Shown: positions 10,064 to 64,000, counted from the stretch's first letter. The stretch: 64,000 nt of DNA from Planctomycetia bacterium (GCA_005790545.1 SXUL01000106.1:13975-77974), one strand, 5' to 3'. Notes: a model not told the origin generated them from the letters alone. Numbers and translations: made by a program.

Positions 10064-12907
10064 TCAGCGCCGCCAGGCAGCAGGCAGAGGCGCAACAGCA
10101 CGGGCGAACCACAGCGGGCGCCGCAAGCCGCCAGGTCCCGCCCCCTTCCGCGTCAGTGCGAGCCACTCGTGCCACACGGACATGGACTTTTCGAGATCCA
10201 CGTGGATGTCCCCGTAGCGGTCGCCTGAGGGCGCTTTTTCAACCTTCACAAGCTGATGCCAGCAGTGCATGCCGCTGATCGGGTCCGGTTGCACGGGAAA
10301 AGTGAGGTTCTGATGCACACCGCCATCTGACCACCACACGCGCTTCGAATCAGGATCCGTCGAAGCAAAAGGTGTGATGTCCCCTGTGCGGCGGATGTCC
10401 ATCGCACTGCCCTCCCGCTCGATGCGCACGGGCGCCGCAGCCCAGCGATCCGTTCCGGGGAGGCCATCGATGCGCCAGCGCCCGAGATGGTGCGAGCAGG
10501 CCACCACGCCCGGACGAATGCCCTCCGTCACCCATACCTTGTTCACGAAGTGCCCGATGCGCGTGGTGACACGCAGCAGGTCGCCCGTGCGCACGCCGAG
10601 GGCCCACGCATCCTCAGGATGCACCCAGACCGGATTCGAGTTGGAGATCTCGTAAAGCCACTTGGCATTGCCGCTGCGCGTGTGGATGAGCGTCGGCAGC
10701 CGGAAGTTCGGGAGCAGCACAAACTCGCCCGCTTCGCGCTTCAACTTCGTTGGGTGCACGTGACTCGGGATGTATCCCGGCATGGAGTTCTCGCGGCCGT
10801 AGCCCCACTCCTCCACCGTGGGTGAAAAGAATTCGAGGCGCAGTGACGGCGTTCTGAAACCCGCAGCGGGCTTGCCTGCGAGATCGACGGCGATTGGCTT
10901 GCCGTCGCGCATCCAGAGTGCACGCGCGGAATCGAGCGTCGCGCCCGTCACGTCTACCGGCTTCTTGAAGACCTCCCCGACCGATTCCTCCACCAGAAAC
11001 GCACCATGACGGCGCATGTACTCGAGAGGCGTGAGCCCCTCGCGCTGAGCGGCTGCGGGCAAGCCCGGCACGCTGTTCTCGAAGATCCAGCGGTAGTACT
11101 CCTCTGTGGTGACGCACTCACCTTTCCGGTAGGGCGATTCGAAGTTCTTCCTGATGCCGAGACTTCCATCCTCGTCGATGGCCCACGAGAGCCGGATCCA
11201 GAACTCGTCCTCTTCCCACACTTCACCCGGATTCGCCTCGTGCGTCCACGTAATGCTGCGGCCCTCGCGTTCCGCATGCACGCGCAGCACCGGTTGACGG
11301 AATGCGATCCAGCGCGCGGCGTGGGTTTCCTGACTCTGAATGTCGTGGCGTTCGGGCCCGTGGCCCATGGGCAGCACGTAGTCCGCGAACAACGCCGTTT
11401 CACTCCATGTGGGCGTCAGCGCTGCGTGCAGTCCGACCAGCTTCTCGTCCTTCAACACATCCATCCACATGCCGCCGTCCGGATTGGTCCAGACCGGGTT
11501 GTAGACGCGTGTGAAATATGTGTCGAGGCGGCCGCGCCCGTCCTTCAGGAAGTGCGGCAGCAAGAACGAGAGTTCGTGATGCGAGAAGGGCCACTCCTCC
11601 GGATAGAGGAGTTCATTCCACACCTCCTGGGGGCTCGGTTTCGTGAAGGGCGCAGGCACGAATTTGTTGTGCGGCGCGAGATGTGTGCCGCCGGCCGTGT
11701 TGACGGACCCCGTGAGCACACACAGGAACTGCATGCAGCGCGCCACCTGCCAACCACCGAGATGCCCGGCCGCGGCGCTGCGCCACACATGCGCACTGAG
11801 CGCACCGCGCGCGGCGCCGATCTCGCGGGCGAGTTCGCGGATGCGCATCATCGGAACACCGCACTCGGCGGCGGCCCACTCCGGCGTGAAACGCGCGAGA
11901 TGTTCGCTGAGCGCCGCCTTGAAACTCGCAAAGACACCCGGCTTTCCCGGATGATGCGCCGCGAGCCACTCGCGCCAATTCACCCACTGCTGCATGAACG
12001 CGTCGTCGCAGAGATTCTCGGCGACCAGCACATGCGCGAACGCGAGCAGCAGCGCAGCCTCGGTGCCTGGCTGTGGCGAGAGCCACCACGTGGACATGCT
12101 GGCGGTGTTCGAAAGCCGCGTGTCGATGGTCAGCACCTTCGCGCCGGCCATCATGCCTTCGATGATGCGCTGAGCGTGCGGATTGAAATAGTGGCCTGTC
12201 TCGAGATGCGAGGAAATGAGCAGGATGAATTTCGCCCGCGCATGATCCGGCGAGGGCCGGTCCATGCCGCTCCAGAGGGCGTAGCCGAGGCGCGCGGCCG
12301 CAGAGCACACATTCGTGTGCGAGTTGTGGCCATCCACGCCCCAGCTCTGCAACACGCGGTCCATGTAGCCGTCATGCCCGGGCCGCCCCACGTGGTACAT
12401 CACCTCGGTCTTGCGGCCCTCCTTCAGCGCCGTGCGGATGCGGCGCGCGAAGGTGTCGATGACCTCATCCCACGTCGTGCGTTCGAATTGCCCCGAGCCG
12501 CGCGGCCCCGACCGCTTCAGCGGGTGCAGGATGCGCTGCGGATCATTGACCTGGTTGATGGTCGCGGGGCCCTTCGCGCAGTTCCGTCCGCGCGATGCTG
12601 GATGGAAGGGATTGCCCTCGAGCTTCCTGATCGTGCCCGATTCTTTGTCCACATAGGCGACGAGTCCGCAGGCCGCCTCGCAGTTGAAGCACACCGTTGG
12701 AATGAGGCGGTAGTGCTTCTCGACCTTGCGTGGCCACGCCTTCGCGTCGTACTCGACCCAATCATCCCACTGCGCCGGCGGCGGGAAGCTGGCGAGATCG
12801 CGCACCTGCCATGGTTCACCCGAGGGAGCCGTGCCCGCAGCGGCGGCAGCGGCCTCGTTCACACCCTTCACGGTGGCACTCATGAGTTCGGTGTCTCCTG
12901 ACCGCAC
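10064..12907 (-). CDS. molybdopterin (Mo-bisPGD) oxidoreductase catalytic subunit, Psr/Phs/Ttr/Soe-like, with no Tat signal
   Basis: N-terminal 4Fe-4S motif CFNCEAAC...C. Candidate Mo-ligand Cys in HTNVCSAA. 947 aa. No RRxFLK motif in the N-terminus. Confidence 0.85.
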   Translation of the reverse strand: MRSGDTELMSATVKGVNEAAAAAAGTAPSGEPWQVRDLASFPPPAQWDDWVEYDAKAWPRKVEKHYRLIPTVCFNCEAACGLVAYVDKESGTIRKLEGNPFHPASRGRNCAKGPATINQVNDPQRILHPLKRSGPRGSGQFERTTWDEVIDTFARRIRTALKEGRKTEVMYHVGRPGHDGYMDRVLQSWGVDGHNSHTNVCSAAARLGYALWSGMDRPSPDHARAKFILLISSHLETGHYFNPHAQRIIEGMMAGAKVLTIDTRLSNTASMSTWWLSPQPGTEAALLLAFAHVLVAENLCDDAFMQQWVNWREWLAAHHPGKPGVFASFKAALSEHLARFTPEWAAAECGVPMMRIRELAREIGAARGALSAHVWRSAAAGHLGGWQVARCMQFLCVLTGSVNTAGGTHLAPHNKFVPAPFTKPSPQEVWNELLYPEEWPFSHHELSFLLPHFLKDGRGRLDTYFTRVYNPVWTNPDGGMWMDVLKDEKLVGLHAALTPTWSETALFADYVLPMGHGPERHDIQSQETHAARWIAFRQPVLRVHAEREGRSITWTHEANPGEVWEEDEFWIRLSWAIDEDGSLGIRKNFESPYRKGECVTTEEYYRWIFENSVPGLPAAAQREGLTPLEYMRRHGAFLVEESVGEVFKKPVDVTGATLDSARALWMRDGKPIAVDLAGKPAAGFRTPSLRLEFFSPTVEEWGYGRENSMPGYIPSHVHPTKLKREAGEFVLLPNFRLPTLIHTRSGNAKWLYEISNSNPVWVHPEDAWALGVRTGDLLRVTTRIGHFVNKVWVTEGIRPGVVACSHHLGRWRIDGLPGTDRWAAAPVRIEREGSAMDIRRTGDITPFASTDPDSKRVWWSDGGVHQNLTFPVQPDPISGMHCWHQLVKVEKAPSGDRYGDIHVDLEKSMSVWHEWLALTRKGAGPGGLRRPLWFARAVAPLPAAWRR

Positions 12908-14391
12908 TTGATGAAGGCGCGCTCATACAGCGCAAGCCCTCCGATGGCAAAGGACGCAGCGAGCACGCTCAACCAGCCGCCCTCGGCCATGCCGAGAGTC
13001 GAGAACCCCGGCAGCAGAGCGCTGACCGCCGCGCCATAGAACAGCAGCACCGCGATGCCCGGAGCGCCGCTGTTGCGGAGCAATGCGTGCGCGCGTCGCG
13101 CCGCAGCATCCGCGATCATCATGCGATTGTGGAAACGCAGCCACATCACATTCAGAATCGCGATCACGGTGAAGCAGACCGGCGCAGGGAACGGCCCCGC
13201 CGCGGTGCCCTTCATGAACAGCGGCACGGCAGCTCCTGCAAGAAGTGCCTGCAGGATGAGATGAACGAAGAGCCCTTTTTCGAGCCAGAGATCGCGGCCA
13301 CGACACTGCGCGAAGAGGAAGGCGGTGTAGCCGGAGGCGAGCAGCGCGAGCGGCAGATTCGCCCAGCGCAGCATGTCGGCGGTCCCGGGGAATCCGAGCA
13401 GCCGGAGCGCAAGGGACGCCGTTGTGAGTGCACCGAAGCCCATGAGCACCCAGGTGCCCTTCACCAACCAGGATTTCCAGTTGGGGCGCGTGAGGATGTG
13501 GAGAAACCGGTCCGGCCTCCCGAGGTCCATGATGAGCAGGACCGTGGTGACGCCCAGGAAGAACAATGCCGCCACTTCCGGGAGCACCGCATCGAAACTG
13601 CCCTCGGCGGGGCGGCGCCCGAGGAATGCAAGGAGTGGCGCAAGCAGCATGGCACCTGCCGCGATGTTCTTGGTGACGAGATAGAGCCACACATGCCAGC
13701 CCCACATGATGGGATGCGGCACGTCAAGCGCGGCGATGAGGTCCGGCGGCGGTTCGAACCCTGGCGGAATGGGTCGGGGTGGTTCCGCGCGGTCACTCCA
13801 GAGATACATCTCCTGTTCGAGAGCCCGGCCTGGCTTCAGCGCATCGTCGAGCGCGCCTGTGTACCAGACGCGCGGCTTCGTGCCCTTCTCCACACGGCGC
13901 TGTTCCGTCTTCTCCGTCGCGAGGTGCTGCGCAATTTCCGTCGCGGGATTGGATGTGTCTCCGGCGATGATGGCATGTTCGGGGCAGACCACGACGCACG
14001 CGGGTTCGAGACCGAGCTCCGTCCTGTGCGCACAGTAGTGGCACTTCTCCGCCGTGCCGGTGTCGTCATTCAGGTAGAGCGCGTCGTAGGGGCAGGCCTG
14101 CATGCAGGCCTTGCAGCCGATGCACGCATCACGATCGAGATCCACGATGCCGTCCACGCGCTTGTGCAGCGCCGTGACCGGACAGATCTCGACGCAAGGT
14201 GCCGCATCGCAGTGGTTGCAGCGCAACACCGTGAAGTGGCGCTTCACGGACGGATACGTGCCCTTCTCGACGTACTTCACCCACGTGCGATGCGAACCCA
14301 CCGGCACTTCGTTCTCGGACTTGCAGGCGACGGTGCAGGCATGGCAGCCGATGCACTTCCTCTGATCGATGACAAAACCGTATTGAGGCAT
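12880..14391 (-). CDS. fused 4Fe-4S ferredoxin (PsrB-like) and NrfD/PsrC-like membrane anchor subunit
   Basis: N-terminal ~170 aa with four Cys clusters (CIGCHACTVAC, CNHCDAAPC, CIGCKACMQAC, CHYCAHR...C). C-terminal ~330 aa polytopic with the NrfD-family DLGRPDRF motif. Overlaps the downstream catalytic subunit gene by 28 bp. Confidence 0.8.
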   Translation of the reverse strand: MPQYGFVIDQRKCIGCHACTVACKSENEVPVGSHRTWVKYVEKGTYPSVKRHFTVLRCNHCDAAPCVEICPVTALHKRVDGIVDLDRDACIGCKACMQACPYDALYLNDDTGTAEKCHYCAHRTELGLEPACVVVCPEHAIIAGDTSNPATEIAQHLATEKTEQRRVEKGTKPRVWYTGALDDALKPGRALEQEMYLWSDRAEPPRPIPPGFEPPPDLIAALDVPHPIMWGWHVWLYLVTKNIAAGAMLLAPLLAFLGRRPAEGSFDAVLPEVAALFFLGVTTVLLIMDLGRPDRFLHILTRPNWKSWLVKGTWVLMGFGALTTASLALRLLGFPGTADMLRWANLPLALLASGYTAFLFAQCRGRDLWLEKGLFVHLILQALLAGAAVPLFMKGTAAGPFPAPVCFTVIAILNVMWLRFHNRMMIADAAARRAHALLRNSGAPGIAVLLFYGAAVSALLPGFSTLGMAEGGWLSVLAASFAIGGLALYERAFIKCGQETPNS

Positions 14392-14409: not shown

Positions 14410-14877
14410 TCAGCAGGTGAAACAGAAGCCTTCCAGCGCCATGGCGGTGAAGTGCGCGCTGGCAGTGGGCAGGATGTAACCGAGTGCCGCCATCCAGGGC
14501 GGGTGCGGCAACATGCGCCCCACGAAGAAGACGCCGAGGATATTGAAGCCCGCGATGATGAAGCTGTTCATCAGGACCGTGCTGGAGTCGATGCTCCCCG
14601 CCACCAAGGTTCCCGCCGCCGTGCCGACCGTCCAACCGATGACGATCATCAACTGCGAGCCCGTACCGGTCATGTCCATCGCGCGTGTCAGAGCGGCGCG
14701 AGCCTCAGCATCGCCCTTGCGAGAGCGCGACATGAGCTCGCGATCATCAAAGATCTGCCGGGCCTCTGCGGGCACGGGCGTGAGGCGGCGTCCGATCTGC
14801 TCGATGAGGGAGACCGTGACAGCAAACGTCGCGATGCCGGCGAGCGTAGTGAGGATGTCGTAGACGATGTCCATGGC
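14410..14877 (-). CDS. small hypothetical membrane protein (4 TM), first gene of the Mo-oxidoreductase cluster
   Basis: Hydrophobic ORF directly upstream of and co-oriented with the FeS-NrfD gene. The longer frame to 15048 would overlap proS, so the internal Met at 14877 is preferred. Confidence 0.35.
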   Translation of the reverse strand, partial: AMDIVYDILTTLAGIATFAVTVSLIEQIGRRLTPVPAEARQIFDDRELMSRSRKGDAEARAALTRAMDMTGTGSQLMIVIGWTVGTAAGTLVAGSIDSSTVLMNSFIIAGFNILGVFFVGRMLPHPPWMAALGYILPTASAHFTAMALEGFCFTC

Positions 14878-15019
14878 GGTGACCCCGAGGCGGAGTGCGG
14901 CACCTGCCGCGGGCGCCAGTATGACCGGCACCCGGCCCCATGCACAGGAGCCCTCCGCTTTTGCGAGTGCCGGTGGTCGTTCATCATGGCGCGCCTGCTT
15001 TCTGCGGGCGGAGACTCCC

Positions 15020-16573
15020 GTGGCCACCAACATCACGACCCGTGCCAAGGACTATGCGCAGTGGTACCTCGACGTCATTGCGGCCGGGGACCTCGCCGAC
15101 CACTCGCCCGTGCGCGGCTGCATGGTCATCAAGCCGCACGGTTTCGGGATCTGGGAACTCATCCGCGACCAGTTGGATGCGCGCTTCAAGGCCACAGGGC
15201 ACGTGAATGCGTACTTCCCGCTCTTCATCCCCATGAGCTTCCTCGCCAAGGAAGCGAAACACGTGGAGGGCTTCGCCATGGAGTGCGCGGTGGTGACGCA
15301 CTCAGGCCTCGAATCCGACGGCGCGGGCGGCTTGAAGCCCCGCGGCGAGATCGAAGAGCCTCTCATCGTGCGCCCCACTTCGGAGACCATCATCGGCCAC
15401 ACCTACGCGCAGTGGGTGCAAAGCTGGCGCGATCTCCCGCTGCTCATCAATCAGTGGGCGAATGTGGTGCGGTGGGAAATGCGCACACGGCTGTTCCTGC
15501 GCACCATGGAGTTCCTCTGGCAGGAAGGCCACACCGCGCACGAAACGCCGGCTGAGGCCGAAGAAGAAACGCTCCGCATGCTCGATGTGTACTCCGAATT
15601 CGCGGAGAACGTGCTTGCGATTCCGGTCCTGAAGGGCGAAAAATCCGCGGCCGAACGCTTCGCCGGCGCCGATCGCACCTACTGCATCGAGGCCATGATG
15701 CAGGACGGAAAGGCGCTGCAGGCCGGCACCAGCCACAACCTCGGGCAGAACTTCTCGAAGGCCTTTGACATCAAGTTCCAGACCCGCGATCAGAAGACGG
15801 AACACGTGTTCACAACCAGTTGGGGTGTGAGCACGCGCCTCATCGGTGGCGTCATCATGACCCACTCCGATGATGAAGGGCTCGTGCTGCCGCCGGCCAT
15901 CGCACCCGTCTCTGTTGCCATCGTGCCCATCTACAGAAAAGACGAGGAGCGCGAAGCCGTGCTCGGTTACGCGCGCCAGCTTCAGCAGCAACTCGCGGGT
16001 GAAGGCGCCGGCGCGAAACTGGTCCGCGGCGAGATCGAGACCGTCGTGCAGCCCGGCACCGGACGCCGCATCGTGCTCGATCTCCGGGATGGGTTGCGCC
16101 CTCCGGAGAAGTTCTTCCACTGGGAGCAGCGCGGCGTGCCCGTGCGCATCGAAGTGGGACCCCGCGACCTCGCCAACGGCAAGGCCGTGGTGGTGACGCG
16201 CGTGGATCGCGCAAAAAACATCGTCGACGCCGCAGGCCTCACGGCAGCGTGGCTGGATGCAACGCTCAGGTCCGCGCAACAGGCCCTGTTCGACAGGGCT
16301 CTGGCCATGCGCACGGCGCGCACCTTCGTCGTGAATGACTACGCCGACTTCAAGGCCCGCCTTGAGGGCGGCGGCTTCTTCCTCATGCACTGGGATGGCA
16401 CGGCGGCCACCGAAGCACGCATCAAGGAAGAAACGAAGGCGACCATTCGCTGCATTCCCGCGGCGGAAAGCCTCGCGACGGCCGACGGAATGGTGGCTCT
16501 GCGCGAAGCAGGCACCGATCCGGTCTCCGGTGCGCCGAGCGCCGGACGGGTGGTCTTCGCCCGGGCCTACTGA
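15020..16573 (+). CDS. proS: proline--tRNA ligase, archaeal/Thermus-type class II
   Basis: Strong similarity by eye to Thermus-type ProRS (DYAQWYLDVI..., FPLFIPMSFLAKEAKHVEGF, RPTSETIIGH, VVRWEMRTRLFLRT). ORF opens at 14867 and the start is uncertain (GTG at 15020 proposed). Confidence 0.85.
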   Translation: MATNITTRAKDYAQWYLDVIAAGDLADHSPVRGCMVIKPHGFGIWELIRDQLDARFKATGHVNAYFPLFIPMSFLAKEAKHVEGFAMECAVVTHSGLESDGAGGLKPRGEIEEPLIVRPTSETIIGHTYAQWVQSWRDLPLLINQWANVVRWEMRTRLFLRTMEFLWQEGHTAHETPAEAEEETLRMLDVYSEFAENVLAIPVLKGEKSAAERFAGADRTYCIEAMMQDGKALQAGTSHNLGQNFSKAFDIKFQTRDQKTEHVFTTSWGVSTRLIGGVIMTHSDDEGLVLPPAIAPVSVAIVPIYRKDEEREAVLGYARQLQQQLAGEGAGAKLVRGEIETVVQPGTGRRIVLDLRDGLRPPEKFFHWEQRGVPVRIEVGPRDLANGKAVVVTRVDRAKNIVDAAGLTAAWLDATLRSAQQALFDRALAMRTARTFVVNDYADFKARLEGGGFFLMHWDGTAATEARIKEETKATIRCIPAAESLATADGMVALREAGTDPVSGAPSAGRVVFARAY

Positions 16574-52258: not shown

Positions 52259-53962
52259 TCACCAGACGATCACCGTGCGTGCGGGCGTGAGGGCGAGGTT
52301 CAGGCCACCAAGAGTCGGCGCCAGTGGGTCCAGGACCGCAGCCTGCGCATGAAAGGTGGCCCCTTGGAATACCGGATTATTGGGGATCGGCAACGGCCAG
52401 ACAACATTGCCGAATATGTCGGTCCCGCCCGATAGATACACGACAGGTGCCGCAAGATCCAAATACACTCCGCACGCGTTCAACGGGCTCGTGCTCAACC
52501 CTGTGGCGATGGCCAGCACAGCAAGAGCGTTGCCGGGAGCACCGAAAACGGCGGCGTTGAAGTTCAGATTGCCGACCTGCGCGTTGGAGGGCCACAGGCC
52601 CGGAGGTGTCGGGCTGCTCCCTGAGCAACCGACTCCATTCAGCGCCTGATTTCTGAAGTAATAGCCGGGACAGTAATACGGCACGCACATCAGGTCCGGG
52701 TCGCTGTCACCGTCGAAGTCGCCGATGACACTCGTCGGGCAAGCCGCAGGGAATGGGCAAGGTGTATGCGATGTGTTCATGCCCGTTTGGTGAAACTGCC
52801 CTCCGGGAAGCCCGAGAGCCATGGTTACGGCAAAATTGCACACGGACGTCGTAAAGAACGGCTCGCGGGCCGGCGCGCGGAGCAAGTCACCCCAACCGTC
52901 GCGATTGAAGTCCGCGGCAAAGGTGGCCACAAAGAGCACGCCTGCAGGCGGCGTCGTGAAAGTCCCTGCAGGAGTCAAAGAGCGCGTGGTGCTGCCGAGA
53001 TGCACCTGCAGAAGCTCGGTGGCGGCACCACCGACGGTCGCGGGTACGCTGCTGACCAGATCCGTGATGCCATCTCCGTTCATGTCGGCGGCACCCACAA
53101 GGCCTGCGGCCATAAATCCCGGGAACACGGGGAATCCCGTAATCGAAGAACCGCTCGGCGCAGTGAATTGCCCGCCACCATTGCCCCAGAGGACGTTCGT
53201 AATCCAGGACGCTCCCACTGAAAAATCCGAGTGCTGGATGGCAAGATCTGTATTGCCGTCACCATCGAAATCTCCCACACGCGGGGCACCACCTATCCCA
53301 TTCACACTCACTCCGCCCCACGCCCACACTTGCACTTGCCATGCCAAGTTCCAGTTCGGGAACTGATTGAGGTAGCAGGATAGAGTTGGCGCATTACCCC
53401 CGCTGCTGGAGTACGCAAGCACATCCGGAAGGCCATCGTTATTGACATCGGCCATGGCAAACCATTGCATGATGACCGCGAGCGTACTCATGCTGATACT
53501 GACTGTGCTCGCTGGAACAAGTGTGCCATTTCCGTTGCCGATACTGAATAATATCATGGACATCGGGTTGCTGGATATGCCAGTACCGTACAAACCATAG
53601 GCCAGATCCTGCAATCCGTCGCCGTTGACATCGGCTGCAATGACGCGTAATGTACCCGCCCCGACCCCCGGCGGATAATAATAGGCATGCGGTATGTACG
53701 GGCCAACGCCGCTGACCGCAGGATCGAGGTCGACTTGGAATAATACCGATCCTGCAACCACATGAATCAAGTCCGCGTAACCGTTTTGGTTGAGATCGGC
53801 CGCCACTGGGAAGTCGCCCGGCCCCGCTCCGGGTGGTGCCATAGGCACATTGAACGCTTCGGTGAGGTATTGCCCCGGCAGGACGCTCACTACCGCCAGC
53901 AACATGAGGGCAACCAACAAGCAGTTCCAAGTGGCCGCGTGCGCGTGTTTGAGGTGGCTCAT
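52259..53962 (-). CDS. FG-GAP repeat (integrin-alpha-like beta-propeller) secreted protein
   Basis: Signal peptide after the MSHLKH start (GAGGAG SD). At least six Dx[DN]xDGxxD calcium-loop repeats (DFDGDGNTDL, DMNGDGITDL, DVNGDGLQDL, ...). Lower GC than flanks. Confidence 0.75.
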   Translation of the reverse strand: MSHLKHAHAATWNCLLVALMLLAVVSVLPGQYLTEAFNVPMAPPGAGPGDFPVAADLNQNGYADLIHVVAGSVLFQVDLDPAVSGVGPYIPHAYYYPPGVGAGTLRVIAADVNGDGLQDLAYGLYGTGISSNPMSMILFSIGNGNGTLVPASTVSISMSTLAVIMQWFAMADVNNDGLPDVLAYSSSGGNAPTLSCYLNQFPNWNLAWQVQVWAWGGVSVNGIGGAPRVGDFDGDGNTDLAIQHSDFSVGASWITNVLWGNGGGQFTAPSGSSITGFPVFPGFMAAGLVGAADMNGDGITDLVSSVPATVGGAATELLQVHLGSTTRSLTPAGTFTTPPAGVLFVATFAADFNRDGWGDLLRAPAREPFFTTSVCNFAVTMALGLPGGQFHQTGMNTSHTPCPFPAACPTSVIGDFDGDSDPDLMCVPYYCPGYYFRNQALNGVGCSGSSPTPPGLWPSNAQVGNLNFNAAVFGAPGNALAVLAIATGLSTSPLNACGVYLDLAAPVVYLSGGTDIFGNVVWPLPIPNNPVFQGATFHAQAAVLDPLAPTLGGLNLALTPARTVIVW

Positions 53963-53972
53963 GTCATGCTCC

Positions 53973-56384
53973 TCAGTACCGGACCTGATTTTCGCCAACG
54001 ACACTCTTGATCGCAGGATTGGCAGGATCAGGGACTTCCAGGGCGAGCACTGTTACGGTTGCCGGCAGCGGCATGGTGGCAGGGATTGCCACGCTGTAGA
54101 CACTCACATTCATGGTGCCTCCTCCGGGGCCAGGGGCAGCTGTCGAAGAGACGAAACTCGTACGAATCTGGGTGCCATTCCATGTGCAAGTCAGCGCTTG
54201 CAGCGGAAATGGGTTGCTGCTTCCCGGGATCCCGGTACCAGCCGCTGCCCGATTGTGACTGACCGTGATCGTCAGGCTGCCGCCCAGCGGAACGGAATTC
54301 CGTGGCGACACCGCAACAAGTGGGCGGCTCACTGGCACAAACTGCGGCCCACTCACACTCAAATTGATCGCATCGGTCAGGCGTATGATGGTGCCGGGTG
54401 CCATGCGCATGCTGCTCACAGGCAACACCGGCGGAGTTGCCAGATTGGTATTCCAGAATCCGGCATATGTGACTTGGGTCGTGAAGGGTAATGGCGGCTG
54501 GTTGAGTACATTGAGTGTGAACTCGTACCACCATTCACCAAACGCGGCAGTCGGAATACCGGTTGTGATTCCGAACCCCAATCGGCCAAGGGGCTCTATG
54601 CACAGTGCGAAGTTCGCGGGACTGGACGCAGGAACCCCATCTATGCGGAACTCTCCCGTCGAGACTGCACCGGCACTCGTGTCGACAACACCTGTCACGC
54701 TTTGCGGCCCGGATCGATGTGTCCCACTGACGGTGCCAACCAACGGAACGCCTGGCACAGGAGGAGTCAACGACACAAGGCTGTCATCCCAAATGACAAA
54801 TACATTGTAACCGAATGAGTTCAGCGGGTGTGCCACGGCACCGACAATGCTGGCTGTTTCGTTGATCAAGAAGTTCCTTGAGCCTGTCATGGCACTGACA
54901 GGGTACAGAGTGGCGAACGCCGCAATGTCGTCGGGTAGCCACGGACTCAGAACGCGATTACGTGCCGGGATTGCAGGCGTGAGCTGGACAGCCGGAGTTG
55001 ACAATGTGGTCGTGAACGCCGCTGTCATGGCCGGCACTTCATTGAAGCTTGGATACCACCCCATGGATAATAAAATGAAAGGCGCAGCTGTCGGGTTCAG
55101 AACCGGGCCACCTGGGTGCAAATTGGTGTGGTCGAGTCCCCAGAAGTGACCAATCTCGTGTGCAAGCCCGCTGCTGGTTTGGGTCACGAGTCCGTTCCAT
55201 GTGGTGGGGCCAGCTGCTGCCTCAAAAATGGTGTCGCACTCCGAGATGATCCCGGTTTGGGGATCCACCATCATGCTGCTCAGCCCACCCACTGCTCCTC
55301 CCAGCATCCCTCCTGCTGTGGGCAAGAAAATGAACTCATTCAAGCCATTGCCCGTTGGTCCACCACAAGCCAGTGACCAAATGAATTGCCCACTAGCGGC
55401 GACAACACCTCCCGCCGGAGCAATGTACGTTGGGGTGGGGTCTTGCGTTGAATACGGATTCGGAGGATAGCCGATGCACACTGTGCTTGGGACATTGGCC
55501 AATTGCAGGATGCTGACGCCGCTCATGATCGCAACGATGTCGTTTGTGAACATTGCCCACGTGTAGGGTGCCCCCAATGCGCCAACAAAAATGTCCGTCC
55601 CAGCTGCAACGCCCGGTGGCGTATTGACGATGTAGGGGACCTGCACGCCTGCGGGCCAATGCCGTGTTACGAGCGAGTATGTTCCGGTTGGGTCAGGATT
55701 GTTGGGGTTCGGTGTACCATCCGCTGCATATGGACTTTGCGCGTACGGCGCCGCGGCGCTGCAGGGAAGGCCTCCCGCACCGGGTGCTCCGCTAGCACTG
55801 GGCGCTGCCATCACATACCAGAGCACATAGGGGTCGTCGCCGTCGCTCGCGGCGCCTGCGCAAAGTTGTTTTTCCGAGTGGCCGCCGCAAGGCTCTACGA
55901 TGTGAGCGAGGCCGGATGGAAGCATGGTGACCGACGCGCCTCGAGAAGTGCGCAGGTGCCTGCCTGCATGAGCCTCAAGGCAACGCAATGCGTGCGAGTT
56001 CGGATCCATGGTGGTCCTGCAGGGAGTGAGAGCGCGAGTACCCGGCGGAAGAAGGATGCGAGCAGCCTCTGGAGACACCGGGGCATCATGGCACACTGGC
56101 GCTGCTGCGTATTCTCCAAAGAACCACCCGTACGACATGATTGTGGCCGCCAGAGCGAGCAGCGTCAGCGCATGCGCGCTGCCGCTATCCGTGAGTCCGT
56201 GAGTCCGTGAGTCCGTGAGTCCATACTTGCCTCCGCTTGCTCTTTGGTGCTTGGTACCGATTTGTATCCTCGCGACGACGTTTGCGCGCGGTGCTGATTT
56301 GCTACAGCAAGGGATGTGCCACAGCGGAATGGCCAGCGCATCGGCTCCGGGGCTGCATTGACGATTCGGCGCAAGCCGCTGCAC
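53973..56384 (-). CDS. matrixin-like (metzincin HExxHxxGxxH) zinc metalloprotease with large N- and C-terminal extensions. Translation start ambiguous; 5' region contains an 8-bp tandem repeat that frameshifts the best start codon.
   Basis: HEIGHFWGLDHT plus downstream DDIAAFATLYP (matrixin C-terminal signature). The ORF frame is open up to 56384. The only SD-preceded ATG (56224) is out of frame by the repeat count. 10-bp gap to the FG-GAP gene. Confidence 0.7.
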   Translation of the reverse strand: MQRLAPNRQCSPGADALAIPLWHIPCCSKSAPRANVVARIQIGTKHQRASGGKYGLTDSRTHGLTDSGSAHALTLLALAATIMSYGWFFGEYAAAPVCHDAPVSPEAARILLPPGTRALTPCRTTMDPNSHALRCLEAHAGRHLRTSRGASVTMLPSGLAHIVEPCGGHSEKQLCAGAASDGDDPYVLWYVMAAPSASGAPGAGGLPCSAAAPYAQSPYAADGTPNPNNPDPTGTYSLVTRHWPAGVQVPYIVNTPPGVAAGTDIFVGALGAPYTWAMFTNDIVAIMSGVSILQLANVPSTVCIGYPPNPYSTQDPTPTYIAPAGGVVAASGQFIWSLACGGPTGNGLNEFIFLPTAGGMLGGAVGGLSSMMVDPQTGIISECDTIFEAAAGPTTWNGLVTQTSSGLAHEIGHFWGLDHTNLHPGGPVLNPTAAPFILLSMGWYPSFNEVPAMTAAFTTTLSTPAVQLTPAIPARNRVLSPWLPDDIAAFATLYPVSAMTGSRNFLINETASIVGAVAHPLNSFGYNVFVIWDDSLVSLTPPVPGVPLVGTVSGTHRSGPQSVTGVVDTSAGAVSTGEFRIDGVPASSPANFALCIEPLGRLGFGITTGIPTAAFGEWWYEFTLNVLNQPPLPFTTQVTYAGFWNTNLATPPVLPVSSMRMAPGTIIRLTDAINLSVSGPQFVPVSRPLVAVSPRNSVPLGGSLTITVSHNRAAAGTGIPGSSNPFPLQALTCTWNGTQIRTSFVSSTAAPGPGGGTMNVSVYSVAIPATMPLPATVTVLALEVPDPANPAIKSVVGENQVRY
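56191..56222. repeat. tandem octanucleotide repeat (gtgagtcc)x4 (GGACTCAC on the coding strand)
   Basis: Read directly: atcc gtgagtcc gtgagtcc gtgagtcc gtgagtcc atac. Confidence 0.9.
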
Positions 56385-56650: not shown

Positions 56651-56723
56651 TGGGCGCTGAGGGATTCGAACCCCCGACCCCCTCGGTGTAAGCGAGGTGC
56701 TCTAGCCGCTGAGCCAAGCGCCC
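56651..56723 (-). tRNA. tRNA-Val (anticodon TAC)
   Basis: Minus-strand GGGCGCTTGGCTCAGCGGCTAGAGCACCTCGCTTACACCGAGGGGGTCGGGGGTTCGAATCCCTCAGCGCCCA folds as a cloverleaf. Anticodon loop is CTTACAC. Confidence 0.85.
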
Positions 56724-56878: not shown

Positions 56879-56898
56879 CCGCCTACGCGCGTAGGCGG
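56879..56898. promoter_or_regulatory. perfect 20-bp palindrome ccgcctacgcgcgtaggcgg flanked by tcacc direct repeats, in the nar upstream region
   Basis: Read directly. Lies ~160 bp upstream of the narC-like start and 5' of tRNA-Val. Confidence 0.25.
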
Positions 56899-57057
56899 CT
56901 CACCAGAAGCTCACCACATTCAGGCCTGAACCGCGAGGCACACCGGACGCCACAACTTCTTGGCCGGATTGAGCTTCAAACAACAGCTGCAACATGATGC
57001 CTGTTGCGCACGATCAAGCGGCACGCCAGTTGATGAGTGCGGAGTGGAAACCCGCAC

Positions 57058-57951
57058 ATGACGGACTTCAACACGCACCCGCTCCACGCGCTCTTCATGA
57101 CCGCGGCTCTGAGAGTTGCCACCACGCTCGGCGTGGTGCTCGCCCTCGGCGGCTTCATCGCCGCTCAAGACCCGCCCTCGGAAGAGACCATGAACTACTT
57201 CAAGGCCAACTGCGCGAGTTGCCACACCATTGGTGGCGGCCGTCTCACTGGTCCTGACCTGAAGGGCGCCGACACTCGCAAGGACCGCGACTGGCTCATC
57301 AGCTTCGTCGCCGATCCGAAGACGATGATCGACTCCGGCGACGCCTACGCCCGCAAACTGGTGGAAGAAGCCCGCGGCGCGCTCATGCCCAATGTCCCCG
57401 GCATGAACAAGACCCTCGCGGCCAAGCTCGTCGATCTCATCAAGGCCGAGTCAGTGCTGGAGAAGTCGCATTTCATGGGTGTGGTGCTTTCGGACCGCCC
57501 ACTCACGGCCGTGGACGTAGCCCAGGGCAAGGCCCTCTTCACCGGCCTCGCACCCTTCAAGGCCGGCGCCCCTGCGTGCAACTCGTGCCACACAGTGCGC
57601 GCTCTCGAGGGCTTCGGCGGCGGCCGCCTCGGACCAGATCTGACCAGCGCCTTCGCGCGTCTCGAAGGCCGCAAGGCCCTCGGTGCATGGCTTTCGGCAC
57701 CGCCCTCCATCGTGATGCAGCCGGTGTTCAAGCAGCACACTCTGGAGAGCGACGAGATTCTCTCGTTGGTGGCGTTCTTGAAGAGCGAAGCGGAAGGCGG
57801 CGATGCGCCCATGGTGGCGGAACCCTCCCTCGACTTCGTGCTGGCAGGGCTCGGCGCGGCAGCGCTGCTCATTGTCTTGATGGACTTCGCCTGGCGTCGC
57901 CGCTACCGCGCCGTGCGCAGGCCCCTCGTTGCGAAGGACTCGAACTCATGA
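57058..57951 (+). CDS. membrane-anchored diheme c-type cytochrome, NarC-like, first gene of the nitrate reductase operon
   Basis: Signal/TM then two CxxCH (CASCH, CNSCH) and a C-terminal TM helix ([18 protein letters not shown]). Stop overlaps the narG ATG (ATGA). Confidence 0.75.
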
Positions 57952-60900
57952 CGAACGGCAACAATCCCTGGATCCAGGACGGCGTCGAGCCCGAGACCCG
58001 CGCTTGGGAAGAGTTCTACAGAAACCGCTGGCAACACGACAAAGTCGTGCGCTCGACCCACGGTGTGAACTGCACCGGCTCGTGCTCGTGGAACGTGCAC
58101 GTGAAGGACGGCATCGTCACATGGGAAATGCAGGCGCTCGACTATCCGGAGTTGTCGAAGGACCTCCCGGGTTACGAACCTCGCGGTTGCCAGCGCGGCA
58201 TCTCATACTCCTGGTACCTCTACAGCCCGCTGCGCGTGAAGTACCCGTACATGCGCGGCGCATTGCTCGACCTTTGGCGCGAAGCGAAGCGCCAGCACGC
58301 CGACCCGGTGGATGCCTGGACGGCCCTGCAAGGCGACCCCGCGAAGCGTGCGCGCTACCAGAAGGCGCGTGGCAAGGGCGGGCTGCGCCGCGTCACGTGG
58401 GATGTGGCCCTTGAGCTGATCACAGCTTCGATGGTGCACACCATCAAGAAGCACGGGCCCGATCGCATCACGGGCTTCTCCCCCATTCCCGCCATGTCGA
58501 TGCTCTCGTACGCAGCGGGTTCGCGCATGTTGCAGCTCCTCGGAGGAGTGAATCTCTCCTTCTACGACTGGTATTGCGATCTGCCGAGCGCGAGCCCCGA
58601 GTGCTGGGGCGAACAGACGGACGTGAACGAATCCGCGGACTGGTTCAACGCCAAGTTCCTCGCGGTCATGGGTGCGAACCTCAACATGACGCGCACGCCG
58701 GACGTGCACTTCGCCGCGGAAGCGCGCCACAACGGTTCGAAGATGGTGGTGTTCGCACCCGACTTCAACCAGGTCGCGAAGTACGCGGATGAGTGGATCA
58801 GCATCAACGCCGGCCAAGACGGCGCGTGGTGGATGGCGGTCAATCACGTCATCCTGAAGGAGTTCCACCACGAACAGAAGATCAAGAGCTTCCTCGACTA
58901 CACCAAGACCTTCTCCGACGCGCCCTTCCTCGTGGAAGTGGTAAAGGAAGGCACGGGCCTCCGACCGGGCCGACTGCTCCGCGCGGACCGCCTCGCCAAG
59001 TACAAGGGCGAAGAGAACGGCGAGTGGAAGTTCCTCTTCTGGGATACCGCCACCAACGCGCCGAAGATGCCCATGGGCAGCATGGGCCACCGCTGGCAGG
59101 CGAAGAAGGGCCAGTGGAATCTGAAGCTCGAAGACGGCATGGATGGTTCGCCCATCGACCCGACCTTGAGCTTCCTAGACGCTGCGGATGAAACGCCGCT
59201 GGTCGGCTTCGACGACTTCGCCAACGGCACCACCACCACACGCGGCGTGCCCGCGAAGAAGCTCACGACGGTGGATGGATCGAGCGTGCTCGTCACCACG
59301 GTCTATGACCTGCTGATGGCGCAGTACGGCGTGCCGCGCGGGCTGCCGGGTGCGTACCCGAAGAGCTACGACGACGACAGTGTGTATACACCGGCATGGT
59401 CCGAGAAGTACACCGGCATCGGCCGCGAGAACCTCATCCGCTTCGCGCGCGAATGGGCCAGCACCGCTGAAAAGACCGGTGGCAAGTGCACCGTCATCAT
59501 CGGCGCCGGCATCAACCACTGGTACCACGCGAACCTCATGTATCGCGCGGCCATCCACGCGCTCATGTTCTGTGGCTGCGTGGGCAAGAACGGTGGCGGC
59601 CTCGCCCACTACGTAGGCCAGGAAAAACTCGCACCCGGCGATTCGTGGGGTGCCATCGCGCTCGCGAAGGACTGGTACCCGCCGTCGCGTCTGCAGAACG
59701 GTCCGAGCTGGCACTACGTGCACTCGGATCAGTGGCGTTACGAGCGCAGCTTCCGCGACTACCACACCGTGCCCGTCGGCACGCCGGATTCGAGCTTCGC
59801 TGCCGGCCACACCATGGACGCCAACGTGAAGGCCGTCCGCAACGGCTGGCTGCCCTTCTTCCCCGCCTTCGATGAAAGCCCGCTCGACACGGTGAAGAAG
59901 GCCGAGCAGGCGGGCGCCAAGGATGAAGCAGCGATCGTCAAGAACGTGGTGCAGCGCATCAAGTCCGGCGACCTCAAGTTCGGCATCGAGAGGCCGGATG
60001 CAAGCGAGGTCTGGCCGCGGCTGTGGTTCATCTGGCGCGGCAACGCGCTGATGAGTTCCGCCAAGGGCCACGAGTACTTCCTCGAGCACTACCTCGGCAC
60101 GCACACCAACAAGATCTCGAAGGAGCTCGCTGCCGACTTCGTGAAGGAAGTCGAATGGATGGCGACGGCACCGCGCGGAAAGATGGATCTGATCGTCGAT
60201 CTCAACTTCCGCATGGACACGTCCGCGCTCTACTCGGACATCGTGCTGCCCGCGGCCACCTGGTACGAGAAGTGCGACCTCAACTCGACGGACATGCACT
60301 CCTTCATCCACCCGCTCGCACCTGCGGTGCAGCCGTGCTGGGAATCGCGTTCGGACTGGGACATCTTCCGCACCATCTCGAAGGAGTTCTCGAAGCTCGC
60401 GGAGAAGCATCTCCCCGGACGCACGAAGGATCTCGTGCCAACCGTGCTCGCGCACGACAGCAACGCAGAGATCGCGCAACCGCGCATGAAGGATTGGAAG
60501 AAGGGCGAGGTGGAGGCCATTCCCGGCAAGACCATGCCCGGCTTCAAGGTCGTCGAGCGCGACTACCCCGCGCTGCACGACATGTTCTGCTCGCTCGGGC
60601 GCAAGGTGCGCGAGAACGGCCTCGGTGCCCACGGCACGCACTACATGGTCGATGATTTCTACGACCAAATGCTGGCCACCTCGCCCGTCGAGCGCTGGAA
60701 CGGCGCGAGCTACCCCTCCTTGAAGGATGCGAAGGACGCGGCGAATGCCGTGCTCAACCTCGCCACGGTCACGAACGGTGAACTGGCGTGGCGCTCCTAC
60801 AAGAACATGGAAGAGAAGACGGGCCTGAAGCTCACCGACCTCGCGGAACCCACCCGCGCAGTGCGCATGAACTTCAAGGATCTGCAAGCACAGCCTCGCC

Positions 60901-61586
60901 GCTTGATCAACTCGCCCATGTGGTCGGGACTGCTCGAAGGCGGCCGCGCTTACTCGCCCTTCACCTACAACGTCGAACGCATGGTGCCCTGGCGCACGCT
61001 CACGGGCCGCCAGCACTTCTACCTCGATCACGACGGCTACATCGCGTTTGGCGAGCACCTCCCGACCTACAAGCCGAAGCCGCGTCCCGATCAGTACGCA
61101 GACCTCGTGGTCTCGGAGGCTGAAGGCCCGACGCTGCAGCTCAACTACCTCACGCCGCACGGCAAGTGGCACATCCACTCGACCTACGGCGACAACCAGC
61201 GCATGACCACGCTCTCGCGCGGCTGCGAACCGTTCTGGATGAATGACAAGGACGCCGACTCGATCGGCATCAACGACAACGACTGGGTCGAGGTGCACAA
61301 CGACCACGGAGTCGTCGTAACTCGCGCCGCGGTGTCTGCGCGCATCCCGCGCGGCATCTGCATCATCTATCACTCACCCGAGCGCACGTATGGCGTGCCG
61401 AAGTCTCCGCTGCGCGGCAACAAGCGCGGTGGCGGCCACAACAGCCTCACGCGCACGCGCCTGAAACCGAACCTCATGGTCGGTGGCTACGGCCAGTTCA
61501 CCTTCCACTTCAACTACTGGGGACCCATCGGGTGCAACCGGGACACCCATGTACTCGTCCGCAAGCTCCCGCATCTCAGCTGGTGA
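57948..61586 (+). CDS. narG: respiratory nitrate reductase alpha subunit
   Basis: N-terminal H/C-x3-C-x3-C-...-C FS0 motif ([15 protein letters not shown]), ~1212 aa, extensive NarG blocks. Start set at the ATG at 57948 rather than the spurious upstream extension. Confidence 0.92.
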
Positions 61587-61622
61587 TGCACGGCGCACGA
61601 CAGGGAGCCTGAAAGGAACACC

Positions 61623-63110
61623 ATGGACGTCAGATCTCAAATCGCAACGCTCTTCCATCTCGACAAGTGCATCGGCTGCCACACCTGCAGCATCGCGTGC
61701 AAGAACATCTGGACCGACCGTCCAGGCACCGAGTACATGTGGTGGAACAACGTCGAGACCAAGCCCGGCACGGGCTATCCGACGCAGTGGGAAGACCAGG
61801 ACGCCTACAAGGGCGGCTGGAAAGTCGAGAACGGCGATCTCGAACTGCGTTCGACTTCGAAAGCGAAGCTCGTCCCGAACATCTTCCACAACCCGGCCAT
61901 GCCCAGCATGGACGACTACTACGAGCCGTGGACCTACAAGTACGACGAGCTGTTCAACGCTCCCGAAGGTGACGATCAGCCGACGGCCATCCCCGTCTCG
62001 ATGATCACGGGCCAGCAGATCAACATCGAGGCCGGCCCCAACTTCGACGACGACCTCGGTGGCTCCAAGGTCTACGCCGCGAACGACGTGAATCTGCGGG
62101 AGCTCGATCCGATGCTCCGCGCGCAGATGCTCGAAATCGAGCGCCTCGCGTTCTTCTACCTGCCGCGCATCTGCAACCACTGTCTCAATCCAGGTTGCGT
62201 CGCGGCCTGTCCCTCCGGCGCGCTCTACAAGCGCGGCGAGGACGGCATCGTGCTCTTGAACCAGGAGCGTTGCCGTGCGTGGCGCGCGTGCATCGCCGCC
62301 TGCCCCTACAAGAAGACCTACTACAACTGGTCCACGGGCAAGTCGGAGAAGTGCATCCTCTGCTTCCCGCGCCTCGAAACGGGCCAAGCACCCGCGTGCT
62401 TCCACTCCTGCGTCGGCCGCATCCGCTATCTCGGCAACGTGCTCTATGACGCGGACCGCATCAAGGATGCCGCGCTCAAGACCGACCTCGAACTCGTGGA
62501 TGCGCAGCGCGATCTCATCCTCGACCCGAACGATCCGGCAGTGATCGCGGGTGCGCGCGCCTCGGGCGTGCCTGAAGCCGTCATCGAATCGGCACAGAAG
62601 TCGCCGGTCTGGCGCTTCGTGAAGGAATGGAAGATGGCGCTTCCGCTCCACGTTGAGTTCCGCACCTTCCCGATGCTCTTCTATGTGCCCCCGTTGCTGC
62701 CGGTGATGTCGGTCGCACGCGGTGGCGTGGTGACCAGCGACGTGGATGCCATGTTCGCGGATATCGAGAAGGCGCGAGCGCCGATCTCGTATCTCGGCAA
62801 GCTCTTCGCCGCCGGGAATGACGGCAAGGTGCGCTACGCACTGCGGAAGCAGATGGCGGTGCGCCTGTGGCGTCGCCACGTCACGGTCGGCGACATCTCG
62901 CTCGAAGAAGCGACGCGCGCATTGCGCGAAGCGGAATGCACGCCCGAACAGGCGGACGCCATCTTCAAGCTCACAGCCCTCGCTTCCATCGACGAGCGCG
63001 TGGTCGTCCCGCCCATGCAACGCGAAATGGCCATCGAGATGCTCGAAGACCCGCACGAGCACCGCGCGGGCACCGGGTTCGGCACACGCACGCCGCCCAT
63101 GCGAGTCTGA
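61623..63110 (+). CDS. narH: respiratory nitrate reductase beta subunit
   Basis: Four FeS-cluster Cys groups (CIGCHTCSIACKN, CNHCLNPGCVAAC, CRAWRACIAAC, CILCFPR...C). 495 aa. Confidence 0.92.
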   Translation: MDVRSQIATLFHLDKCIGCHTCSIACKNIWTDRPGTEYMWWNNVETKPGTGYPTQWEDQDAYKGGWKVENGDLELRSTSKAKLVPNIFHNPAMPSMDDYYEPWTYKYDELFNAPEGDDQPTAIPVSMITGQQINIEAGPNFDDDLGGSKVYAANDVNLRELDPMLRAQMLEIERLAFFYLPRICNHCLNPGCVAACPSGALYKRGEDGIVLLNQERCRAWRACIAACPYKKTYYNWSTGKSEKCILCFPRLETGQAPACFHSCVGRIRYLGNVLYDADRIKDAALKTDLELVDAQRDLILDPNDPAVIAGARASGVPEAVIESAQKSPVWRFVKEWKMALPLHVEFRTFPMLFYVPPLLPVMSVARGGVVTSDVDAMFADIEKARAPISYLGKLFAAGNDGKVRYALRKQMAVRLWRRHVTVGDISLEEATRALREAECTPEQADAIFKLTALASIDERVVVPPMQREMAIEMLEDPHEHRAGTGFGTRTPPMRV

Positions 63111-63112
63111 CC

Positions 63113-63661
63113 ATGGTTGCCAACCTCGACACACACGAACGCGCCGCCGGCCTCCTCGGCTACCCCTTGGATGCCGATGGCCGCGCGCTCGCGCGCGAAG
63201 CGGAACTCCTCGCCGAGGCCTTGCCAGAGATGCGCGATGAGCTCGCACGTTTCGCGGACAAGGTGCGCGATGCCGAGCCAGGCACCATCGAGGAGTTCTA
63301 CACCAGCGCGTTCGACAACACGCCGGACCGCGCGCTTGAACTCGGCTGGCATGCTTTCGGCGAGACCTACTCGCGCGGAGCATTCCTCGCCTCCATGCGC
63401 GCGCGCATGCGCGATGCAGGTGTCGTGGAGTGCACGGAACTTCCCGATCACATCACGCATGTACTGCGGCTCTTGCCGCATCTCGATCCGGCGCTCGCCG
63501 GAGCCCTCGCTGAGGGCGTGCTCGTTGCGGCCACGGACAAGGCCATCAAGGGTTTCGCGGATGGTGCACACCCGTGGCTCGCGCCGCTCAAGGCAGCGCG
63601 CGCGGTGATTGCATCGCACGTCGCCACGGCGACGCGGATGAAGGAGCAGGTCCATGAATGA
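63113..63661 (+). CDS. narJ: nitrate reductase molybdenum cofactor assembly chaperone
   Basis: ~182 aa acidic protein between narH and narI with NarJ/TorD-family features. Start at the ATG at 63113, 2 nt after the narH stop. Confidence 0.75.
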   Translation: MVANLDTHERAAGLLGYPLDADGRALAREAELLAEALPEMRDELARFADKVRDAEPGTIEEFYTSAFDNTPDRALELGWHAFGETYSRGAFLASMRARMRDAGVVECTELPDHITHVLRLLPHLDPALAGALAEGVLVAATDKAIKGFADGAHPWLAPLKAARAVIASHVATATRMKEQVHE

Positions 63662-64000
63662 CTTCCTCTTGTTTGCGGCGCTGCCCTACGCGGCGCTCCT
63701 CGTGTTCTTCCTCGTGACCATCCAGCGCTATCGCCAGCGCAAGTTCACCTACTCCGCGCTCTCGAGCCAGTTCCTCGAGAACAAGGTGCACTTCTGGGGC
63801 TCGGTGCCGTTCCACTACGGCATTCTCGCGGTGCTTTTCCTGCACTTTCTCTTCATCGTGATGCCGAAGACGATTCTCGCGTGGAACGCGGCGCCGCTGC
63901 GGCTCTGGGCTCTTGAAGCCACGGGCCTCGCGTTCGCGGTTCTCGCACTCACGGGTCTCGTCAACACGATCATGCGCCGCTGGACGTTCGCGAAAGCGCG
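63654..64000 (+). CDS. narI: respiratory nitrate reductase gamma subunit, N-terminal part (runs off the window end)
   Basis: ATG at 63654 overlaps the narJ stop (ATGA). Translation MNDFLLFAALPYAALLVFFLVTIQRYRQRKFTYSALSSQFLENKVHFWGSVPFHYG matches the NarI heme-b membrane subunit N-terminus. Not in the ORF track because there is no stop within the window. Confidence 0.75.
   Translation, partial: MNDFLLFAALPYAALLVFFLVTIQRYRQRKFTYSALSSQFLENKVHFWGSVPFHYGILAVLFLHFLFIVMPKTILAWNAAPLRLWALEATGLAFAVLALTGLVNTIMRRWTFAKA

Follow-up and report, generated by a model that had tools for sequence, protein, structure and literature searches.

A Thermus-like narC-narGHJI nitrate reductase operon in a Planctomycetota genome

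Introduction

Is a c-type cytochrome encoded directly in front of a planctomycete respiratory nitrate reductase the same protein as NarC of Thermus, and how would it take part in nitrate respiration? The question is raised by positions 57058-64000 of a 64,000-nucleotide stretch of DNA from a Planctomycetia bacterium (GCA_005790545.1, SXUL01000106.1:13975-77974), the whole of which is called the window below. In this region the genes narG, narH, narJ and narI follow a gene for a diheme cytochrome, which we call narC. Thermus NarC is required for maturation of NarG and for its membrane attachment, and it binds NarI, as concluded from genetics and two-hybrid assays; it has also been described as the electron bridge to the Nir and Nor enzymes (PMC7694296, PMC10609526). 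NarC has hitherto been presented as a Thermus peculiarity, and public records label such genes only as 'c-type cytochrome'. We consider it probable that these genes form the 5′ portion of a narCGHJIKT operon of the Thermus type from an uncultured member of the Planctomycetota, encoding a quinol-oxidising nitrate reductase with NarC as a fourth subunit.

Results

The cytochrome upstream of narG is a NarC homologue

The five genes at the end of the window are all encoded on the plus strand, and the scores given are those of the family models against their cutoffs:

57058-57951, plus strand: narC, from ATG 57058 to TGA 57949-57951, a diheme c-type cytochrome of 297 amino acids
57948-61586, plus strand: narG, catalytic subunit with molybdenum bis-molybdopterin guanine dinucleotide (Mo-bisMGD); TIGR01580, 1500.5 bits against 1084
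61623-63110, plus strand: narH, iron-sulfur electron-transfer subunit; TIGR01660, 627.2 bits against 524
63113-63661, plus strand: narJ, assembly chaperone of the TorD/NarJ family; Pfam PF02613 (Nitrate_red_del), 28.8 against 22.2
63654-64000, plus strand: narI, first 115 of 229 codons, diheme b membrane subunit with the quinol oxidation site; PF02665, 92 bits against 22.9

The start codon of narG (57948-57950) overlaps the stop codon of narC by 4 nucleotides in the sequence ATGA (57948-57951). A gap of 36 nucleotides separates narG from narH and one of 2 nucleotides narH from narJ, while narJ and narI overlap by 8 nucleotides and narI leaves the window. The gene order and the ATGA overlap had been proposed in a preliminary description made from the window sequence, and both the list of open reading frames and the raw sequence bear it out. 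The GC content at third codon positions (GC3) is 0.83 in narC and 0.83–0.87 for narC and narG, in a genome of 64% GC, which indicates that both are genuine genes. As the start of narC we prefer ATG 57058, since both CCCGCACATGA and the N-terminal residues are kept in a relative whose NarC is 88% identical (hereafter the close relative). Two other starts were rejected: GTG 57037 lies upstream of the predicted sigma-54 transcription start, and ATG 57097 has no counterpart in the close relative.

A tblastn search with NarC against the 72,556 plasmids of PLSDB (7.3 Gb) matched 13 Thermus records with 29% identity over residues 48-241 (E 2e-7). The match in T. thermophilus NAR1 is a 262-amino-acid 'c-type cytochrome' located directly upstream of narG, i.e. 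NarC, and the matches lie on megaplasmids. Compared by BLASTP, the two proteins share 29% identity over 198 amino acids (E 7e-15). Alignment of a 27-sequence profile with Thermus NarC by hhalign gave a probability of 99.8% and an E value of 1.2e-27 over 224 columns; it starts at heme 1 and takes in both heme domains, the motif GGGxLGxDL, both candidate methionine ligands, the anchor helix and the basic tail. The hydropathy plan is also the same, with a signal peptide, two CxxCH motifs, a C-terminal transmembrane helix and a basic tail, though the window protein is 35 residues longer and its first domain is extended. The likeness to Thermus NarC suggested in the preliminary description is thus borne out beyond the CxxCH motifs, and on this sequence evidence the cytochrome is a true homologue of T. 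thermophilus NarC.

The two heme-binding motifs of the window protein are C52ASCH and C174NSCH. Together with the candidate axial ligands M110 and M220 they are invariant across the 27 relatives and Thermus NarC. Further columns invariant in the relatives and Thermus are GGGxLGxDL after heme 2 and W279/R282. Kyte-Doolittle windows above 1.6 mark a hydrophobic N-terminus at residues 11-36, with a cleavage-like site between IAA and QD, and a C-terminal hydrophobic helix at about residues 255-280, followed by a basic tail of 10 residues. NarC is therefore predicted to carry an export signal and a single C-terminal membrane anchor, and the basic tail behind the anchor would place the heme domains in the periplasm and the tail in the cytoplasm. 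In an AlphaFold2 model with a predicted local distance difference test (pLDDT) score of 78.5, calculated from an alignment without Thermus NarC, two helical domains resemble cytochrome c, and residues 258-295 form a long helix. As a side observation, the NarC relatives include triheme variants of about 400–420 amino acids, in which the N-terminal heme domain is duplicated.

NarC and narG form a widespread module

We searched 5.8 billion proteins with NarC and obtained more than 2,755 matches. The top matches are 56–95% identical, come mostly from metagenome-assembled genomes (MAGs) of Planctomycetota, and are mostly unnamed or called 'cytochrome c'. An exhaustive profile search of 1.84 billion representatives clustered at 50% identity yielded 2,474 clusters with E<=1e-10, of which 556 reach E<=1e-30. 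When one genome of each GTDB species was scanned, at least 511 genomes had a NarC relative. The hosts belong to about eight phyla and include Planctomycetota, Acidobacteriota, Bacteroidota, Ignavibacteria, Calditrichota, KSB1, Latescibacterota and one Ectothiorhodospiraceae MAG.

Linkage was counted in the 80 best NarC loci, 78 of which extend past the cytochrome gene. In all 78, narG is the next gene on the same strand. With the Thermus operon added, 52 of 79 loci have overlapping narC and narG genes, and the median gap is -4 nucleotides. Neither a terminator nor a sigma-70-like promoter was detected between narC and narG in the window. The absence of these signals before narG and the stop/start overlap, which is the modal arrangement in the relatives, agree with the preliminary description, in which narC was not seen as a separate transcription unit. 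We conclude that NarC-narG is an old, widely distributed and translationally coupled module and not an oddity of Thermus. The window locus is an ordinary member of the NarC-type nitrate reductases, an arrangement that is abundant in public data under generic annotation. We found no paper that names NarC in Planctomycetota, and in the Thermogutta genome NarC was reported to be absent (PMC5673643). The 'NarC' of haloarchaea is a different protein, a cytochrome b, and shares only the name.

These counts also bear on whether the cytochrome could be an unrelated periplasmic carrier, similar to CcoP or SoxX, that happens to lie beside the nar genes and has no structural role in the reductase. Pfam and NCBIfam models recognise only generic cytochrome c domains in NarC, with SoxX and a generic heme-binding domain below their cutoffs. 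Foldseek matches the domains of the model to class I cytochromes c at the domain level, and the PDB holds only such generic domains and no NarC homologue by sequence or by fold. Against this stand the specific, full-length homology with NarC, the invariant adjacency to narG across some eight phyla and the conserved stop/start overlap. We regard an unrelated carrier as highly improbable.

The reductase is predicted to face the cytoplasm

As the window edge cuts narI, the continuation of the operon was taken from identical public contigs by exact-protein look-ups. Over 16,943 bases the window matches ENA k141_60076 (= NCBI GCA_005779745.1 SXIW01000004.1) with 100% identity, and this contig runs beyond the window end. 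The complete NarI of this contig passes the TIGR00351 cutoff of 105.55 with a score of 124.8. NarG shares 63.5% identity with its Thermus counterpart and 47% with that of E. coli; the E. coli and Thermus proteins share 49%. For NarH, NarI and NarJ the identity to the Thermus counterparts is 59, 42 and 33%, respectively. The NCBIfam equivalog score of narJ, 36, lies below the cutoff of 59.35, and the assignment is supported by the position of the gene and by the identity to Thermus NarJ.

In NarG the ligands of the FS0 cluster (H38, C42, C46 and C81) and of molybdenum (D211) are conserved and align with H50, C54, C58, C93 and D223 of the E. coli protein (precursor numbering). The N-terminus of NarG has no RR pair, no hydrophobic region and no twin-arginine translocation (Tat) motif. 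It is 12 residues shorter than that of E. coli NarG and lacks the segment DRFRYFK, which in E. coli is a vestigial Tat and NarJ-binding sequence. Thermus NarG likewise lacks the N-terminal NarJ-binding segment (PMC10609526). A longer reading frame starting at GTG 57576 (+124 residues) was rejected, as the added residues would be encoded within conserved narC and include no Tat-like h-region.

On the identical contig, the rest of narI is followed by two NarK-family genes of the major facilitator superfamily, the first of them only 3 nucleotides after narI. Of the two products, the first has Thermus NarK as its best match, at 29% identity, and the second shares 60% identity with Thermus NarT. 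The preliminary description had correctly noted that no narK is seen in the window, and the reason is that the window edge cuts the operon. With NarK and NarT homologues in the same order past the window, the seven-gene synteny with Thermus narCGHJIKT is complete. The lack of a Tat signal on NarG together with the two NarK-type transporters argues for a cytoplasmic active site. The same observations leave the periplasm-facing enzyme considered in the preliminary description unsupported, its proposed check of the NarG N-terminus having revealed neither a Tat motif nor the E. coli remnant. We conclude that narGHJI encodes an ordinary membrane-bound respiratory nitrate reductase that faces the cytoplasm.

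A cytoplasm-facing enzyme of this clade might also work in reverse, as a Nitrobacter-type nitrite oxidoreductase (NXR) in which NarC passes the electrons of nitrite outward to the cytochrome c pool and a terminal oxidase. In Nitrobacter, an nxrX gene of the PpiC type lies between the genes for the alpha and beta subunits. The 36-nucleotide gap between the corresponding genes of the window contains no nxrX-like gene, and no carbon-fixation or oxidase genes were seen beside the cluster. NarG is 64% identical to that of the Thermus nitrate reductase, which has been characterised by experiment, and the synteny with the Thermus nitrate-respiration operon extends to both transporters. Clusters of the Nitrobacter/Nitrococcus type have the order cytochrome c-nxrA-nxrX-nxrB-narJ-narI. 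A Thermus review describes the Nitrobacter nxr cluster as very similar and its cytochrome as a NarC homologue that is thought to carry electrons outward (PMC7694296). This likeness follows the published description of the cluster and not a direct sequence comparison, and the reaction there is presumed to run in the opposite direction. The passages of PMC10732223 on these enzymes place the Nar-type NarG of Planctomycetota in one NarG/NxrA clade with NxrA of Nitrobacter, Nitrococcus and Nitrolancea, in which direction cannot be assigned from sequence; the authors assign the clade to nitrate reduction. Taken together, the evidence makes nitrite oxidation very unlikely as the function of the window enzyme.

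An Alternative Complex III gene set follows the nar genes

The next six genes on the contig start 7 nucleotides after the narT-like gene. In window numbering, narI to actF correspond to positions 63654-74269. They encode a pentaheme cytochrome, a Tat-exported fusion of molybdoenzyme-like and iron-sulfur parts, an NrfD-type protein, ActD (PF11821), a monoheme cytochrome c and a second membrane protein. Pfam recognises NrfD, PF11821 and cytochrome c domains in this set; ActF (388 amino acids) has no family match. ActA has five CxxCH motifs in 225 amino acids, and ActB carries the motif RRSFLRL and QrcB/QrcC-like domains. From the ActD family and the domain order, we read the six genes as actABCDEF of Alternative Complex III (ACIII). 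After a further 211 nucleotides, actF is followed by genes for a histidine kinase with HAMP and PAS domains and a sigma-54-dependent response regulator of the NtrC type, about 10.5–14 kb past the window end. The preliminary description had pointed beyond the window for narK/narT and regulators, and genes of both kinds are thus present there.

This arrangement raises the possibility that NarC is mainly an entry point for electrons. ACIII would then oxidise quinol and deliver electrons through ActA/ActE and NarC to NarI, NarH and NarG, by a cytochrome c route or within a Nar-ACIII supercomplex, in addition to or in place of quinol oxidation by NarI. The genes narCGHJI-narK-narT-actABCDEF are 13 co-directional genes with gaps of at most 36 nucleotides overall and at most 10 nucleotides past the window, and no terminator-like site was found at the narT/actA junction. 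The close relative has the same nar-act layout, and in the two metagenome loci with the closest ActA relatives narHJI immediately precedes actA. In its parts on these gene clusters, PMC10732223 describes 13 clusters of nar plus six genes in MAGs of Planctomycetota and KSB1, and leaves the complex unassigned, possibly a nitrite reductase. Moreover, NarC residues 44-117 (57187-57408) resemble a monoheme domain that is fused N-terminally to ActA in the solved Flavobacterium ACIII (6BTM_A, E 7e-10), and a cytochrome c module may be common to NarC and ACIII. Several unrelated metagenome loci also encode domains of this kind immediately before actA.

Other observations speak against electron entry from ACIII. 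NarI is intact and scores as a true equivalog, so that direct quinol oxidation is available. The compared loci of most NarC-bearing lineages reach only to narI, and the other ActA-related metagenome loci, including those with 10 kb of upstream DNA, have no nar gene upstream of actA. The adjacency may merely reflect co-regulation of anaerobic respiratory modules; it motivates the idea of a NarC-ACIII coupling without proving it. We therefore consider ACIII-fed entry through NarC improbable. A similarly doubtful standing applies to the broader proposal that the 13 genes are one sigma-54-controlled unit, a physically or functionally coupled Nar-ACIII module with NarC as its heme c connector. If this were true, the nitrate/nitrite couple and the cytochrome c pool would be connected both ways, allowing cytochrome c-dependent nitrate reduction with extra energy conservation by ACIII, or nitrite oxidation that feeds cytochrome c. 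It would also explain why NarC-type nitrate reductases prevail in many non-proteobacterial phyla.

A candidate sigma-54 promoter precedes narC

Upstream of narC, only two blocks are conserved in the close relative:

56879-56898, no strand assigned: perfect 20-bp palindrome CCGCCTACGCGCGTAGGCGG, about 130 nucleotides upstream of the -24/-12 element
57020-57033, plus strand: candidate sigma-54 (-24/-12) element GGCACGccagTTGA, 38 nucleotides upstream of the narC ATG

The counterpart of GGCACGccagTTGA in the close relative is GGCACGgcaaTTGA. Of the palindrome, the core TACGCGCGTA and GGCGG are kept there, and the intergenic DNA around them has diverged. The only exact copy of CTACGCGCGTAG in the window is at the palindrome, which is a candidate upstream activating sequence for a sigma-54 activator. 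Among 78 related loci, 14 have the pattern GGCA[CT][GA]N4TTG[CA] in front of narC, where about 0.65 would be expected. Within the 64-kb window the sigma-54 motif has only two matches, both intergenic. The other one, GGCACATCCCTTGC at 56307-56320 on the minus strand, lies about 300 nucleotides upstream of a minus-strand gene for a 678-amino-acid protein. A near-consensus copy, GGCACGggacTTGCT, is located 15 nucleotides before the downstream histidine kinase gene. We infer that the nar genes are probably transcribed from a sigma-54 promoter under the control of the NtrC-type two-component system encoded downstream.

Scans for other signals gave little. No sigma-70-like promoter was found in a scan, and the terminator-like sites detected lie inside coding sequence, in numbers near the expectation from shuffled sequence. 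An FNR/CRP box, TTGCGCACGATCAA at 57004-57017, was rejected, having two mismatches to the consensus and no conservation in the close relative. Boxes with a single mismatch to FNR occur three times in the window, compared with 0.7 expected, and all of them are inside genes.

Host and neighbouring genes

The preliminary description had guessed an origin in the Planctomycetes-Verrucomicrobia-Chlamydiae group, and rightly so. The closest named relatives of the prolyl-tRNA synthetase (ProRS) encoded in the window are from Planctomycetota MAGs, at 84 and 71% identity, followed by Humisphaera borealis (Phycisphaerae) at 61%, and a DUF1800/DUF1501 pair is present in the window. The same description had called this ProRS Thermus-type. 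Its C-terminal domain is of the archaeal/Thermus type (PF09180), but this domain occurs in every planctomycete homologue listed and gives no link to Thermus. The ProRS reading frame, 14867-16573 on the plus strand, is listed with 568 amino acids. Its homologues (517–521 amino acids) cover only 91% of it, suggesting that the true start is about 50 codons downstream. In GC and GC3 the nar region equals the remaining window, hence there is no sign of recent transfer.

Three other regions of the window were noted:

343-3000, plus strand: cytochrome b (349 amino acids), then a 529-amino-acid multiheme cytochrome c
10064-14391, minus strand: 947-amino-acid molybdopterin oxidoreductase with an Fe4S4 domain, adjoining a 503-amino-acid fusion of a 4Fe-4S dicluster and an NrfD-type membrane domain
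52259-56384, minus strand: genes for two large secreted proteins, one with FG-GAP repeats and one of 678/803 amino acids for which the public gene call records no Pfam match

The first pair looks like a quinol oxidoreductase of the cytochrome b/multiheme c (bc-type) kind, a second possible partner of the cytochrome c pool, and the second pair is another Psr/Nrf-like respiratory complex. The genes at 52259-56384 have lower GC (0.59–0.60) and GC3 (0.62–0.67) than their surroundings and adjoin a tRNA-Val gene (56651-56723, minus strand). They are missing in the close relative, where the M1 peptidase gene abuts tRNA-Val. This region looks like a 4.3-kb islet inserted beside the 3′ end of the tRNA-Val gene, in which no integrase was seen.

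Discussion

The planctomycete locus shares the gene order C-G-H-J-I-K-T with narCGHJIKT of the NCE element of T. thermophilus, which encodes a heterotetrameric nitrate reductase containing NarC. The settings of the two operons differ. Thermus is a thermophile, while the window comes from an environmental lineage of Planctomycetota, and its operon is located on a large contig with host-like GC and no sign of a conjugative element or megaplasmid. None of the Thermus regulator genes DnrS/DnrT and DrpA/B or the nrc NADH dehydrogenase genes is near the operon, which is accompanied instead by a candidate sigma-54 promoter, the NtrC-type two-component system and the ACIII operon downstream.

With E. 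coli NarGHJI (1Q16) the window enzyme has in common the G-H-J-I core, the FS0 (His/Cys3) and molybdenum (Asp) ligands, the cytoplasmic site and a NarK-type transporter. The E. coli enzyme has no cytochrome c subunit, and its NarG has the 12 extra N-terminal residues described above. In E. coli, narK lies upstream and expression is under FNR and NarL control, whereas in the planctomycete narK lies downstream and no conserved FNR box was found.

Further described counterparts are MAG clusters from an Oslofjord tunnel, which combine nar genes with a 'novel NrfD-type complex' (PMC10732223). In the parts of that paper that present the clusters, the same six-gene set is located downstream, and sigma-54/NtrC-type kinase genes are drawn beside them as well. 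These parts make no mention of a cytochrome upstream of narG or of a link to NarC, and the complex unassigned there is ACIII in our reading. The Oslofjord MAGs OFTM177, OFTM22, OFTM286 and OFTM354 are among the NarC-bearing loci that we found.

For a quinol-oxidising nitrate reductase with NarC as fourth subunit, the following scheme can be proposed, which for NarGHI draws on the E. coli structures 1Q16 and 1Y4Z. (Mena)quinol would be oxidised by NarI at the periplasmic side, where protons are released, and electrons would pass through the two b hemes of NarI and the iron-sulfur clusters of NarH to the Mo-bisMGD site of NarG. The two NarK-family transporters would bring nitrate in and nitrite out. 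NarC would be exported by means of its signal peptide, receive its two c hemes in the periplasm, and be held in the membrane beside NarI by its C-terminal helix. In analogy to Thermus, it may act as a structural subunit for the assembly and membrane attachment of NarGH. It may also serve as a periplasmic heme c wire, through which electrons leave NarI towards Nir/Nor-type acceptors or enter from the cytochrome c pool. Translation of narC and narG would be coupled through the ATGA overlap, and transcription would probably start at the sigma-54 promoter, driven by the downstream two-component system.

Several points weigh against this interpretation. With no more than 29% identity to Thermus NarC and a poorly conserved N-terminal heme domain, the window protein need not be functionally equivalent. 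That NarC is needed for assembly and binds NarI is suggested here by homology, the role being known from Thermus alone. The 64-kb window and the next 14 kb revealed no nir, nor or nos genes, which leaves the proposed periplasmic acceptors without candidate genes in this region. At the promoter, the -12 element in front of narC reads TTGA and not the consensus TTGC, and the sigma-54 element thus remains a candidate only. Finally, the direction of catalysis, nitrate reduction or nitrite oxidation, is not fixed by sequence, as stated in the relevant passages of PMC10732223.

The locus and the survey show that NarC is spread much more widely than its presentation as a Thermus trait would suggest. 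This is of consequence when the capacity for denitrification is annotated in metagenomes, and likewise for the path that electrons take between Nar and the periplasmic denitrification enzymes in organisms whose bc1 complex is missing or repressed.

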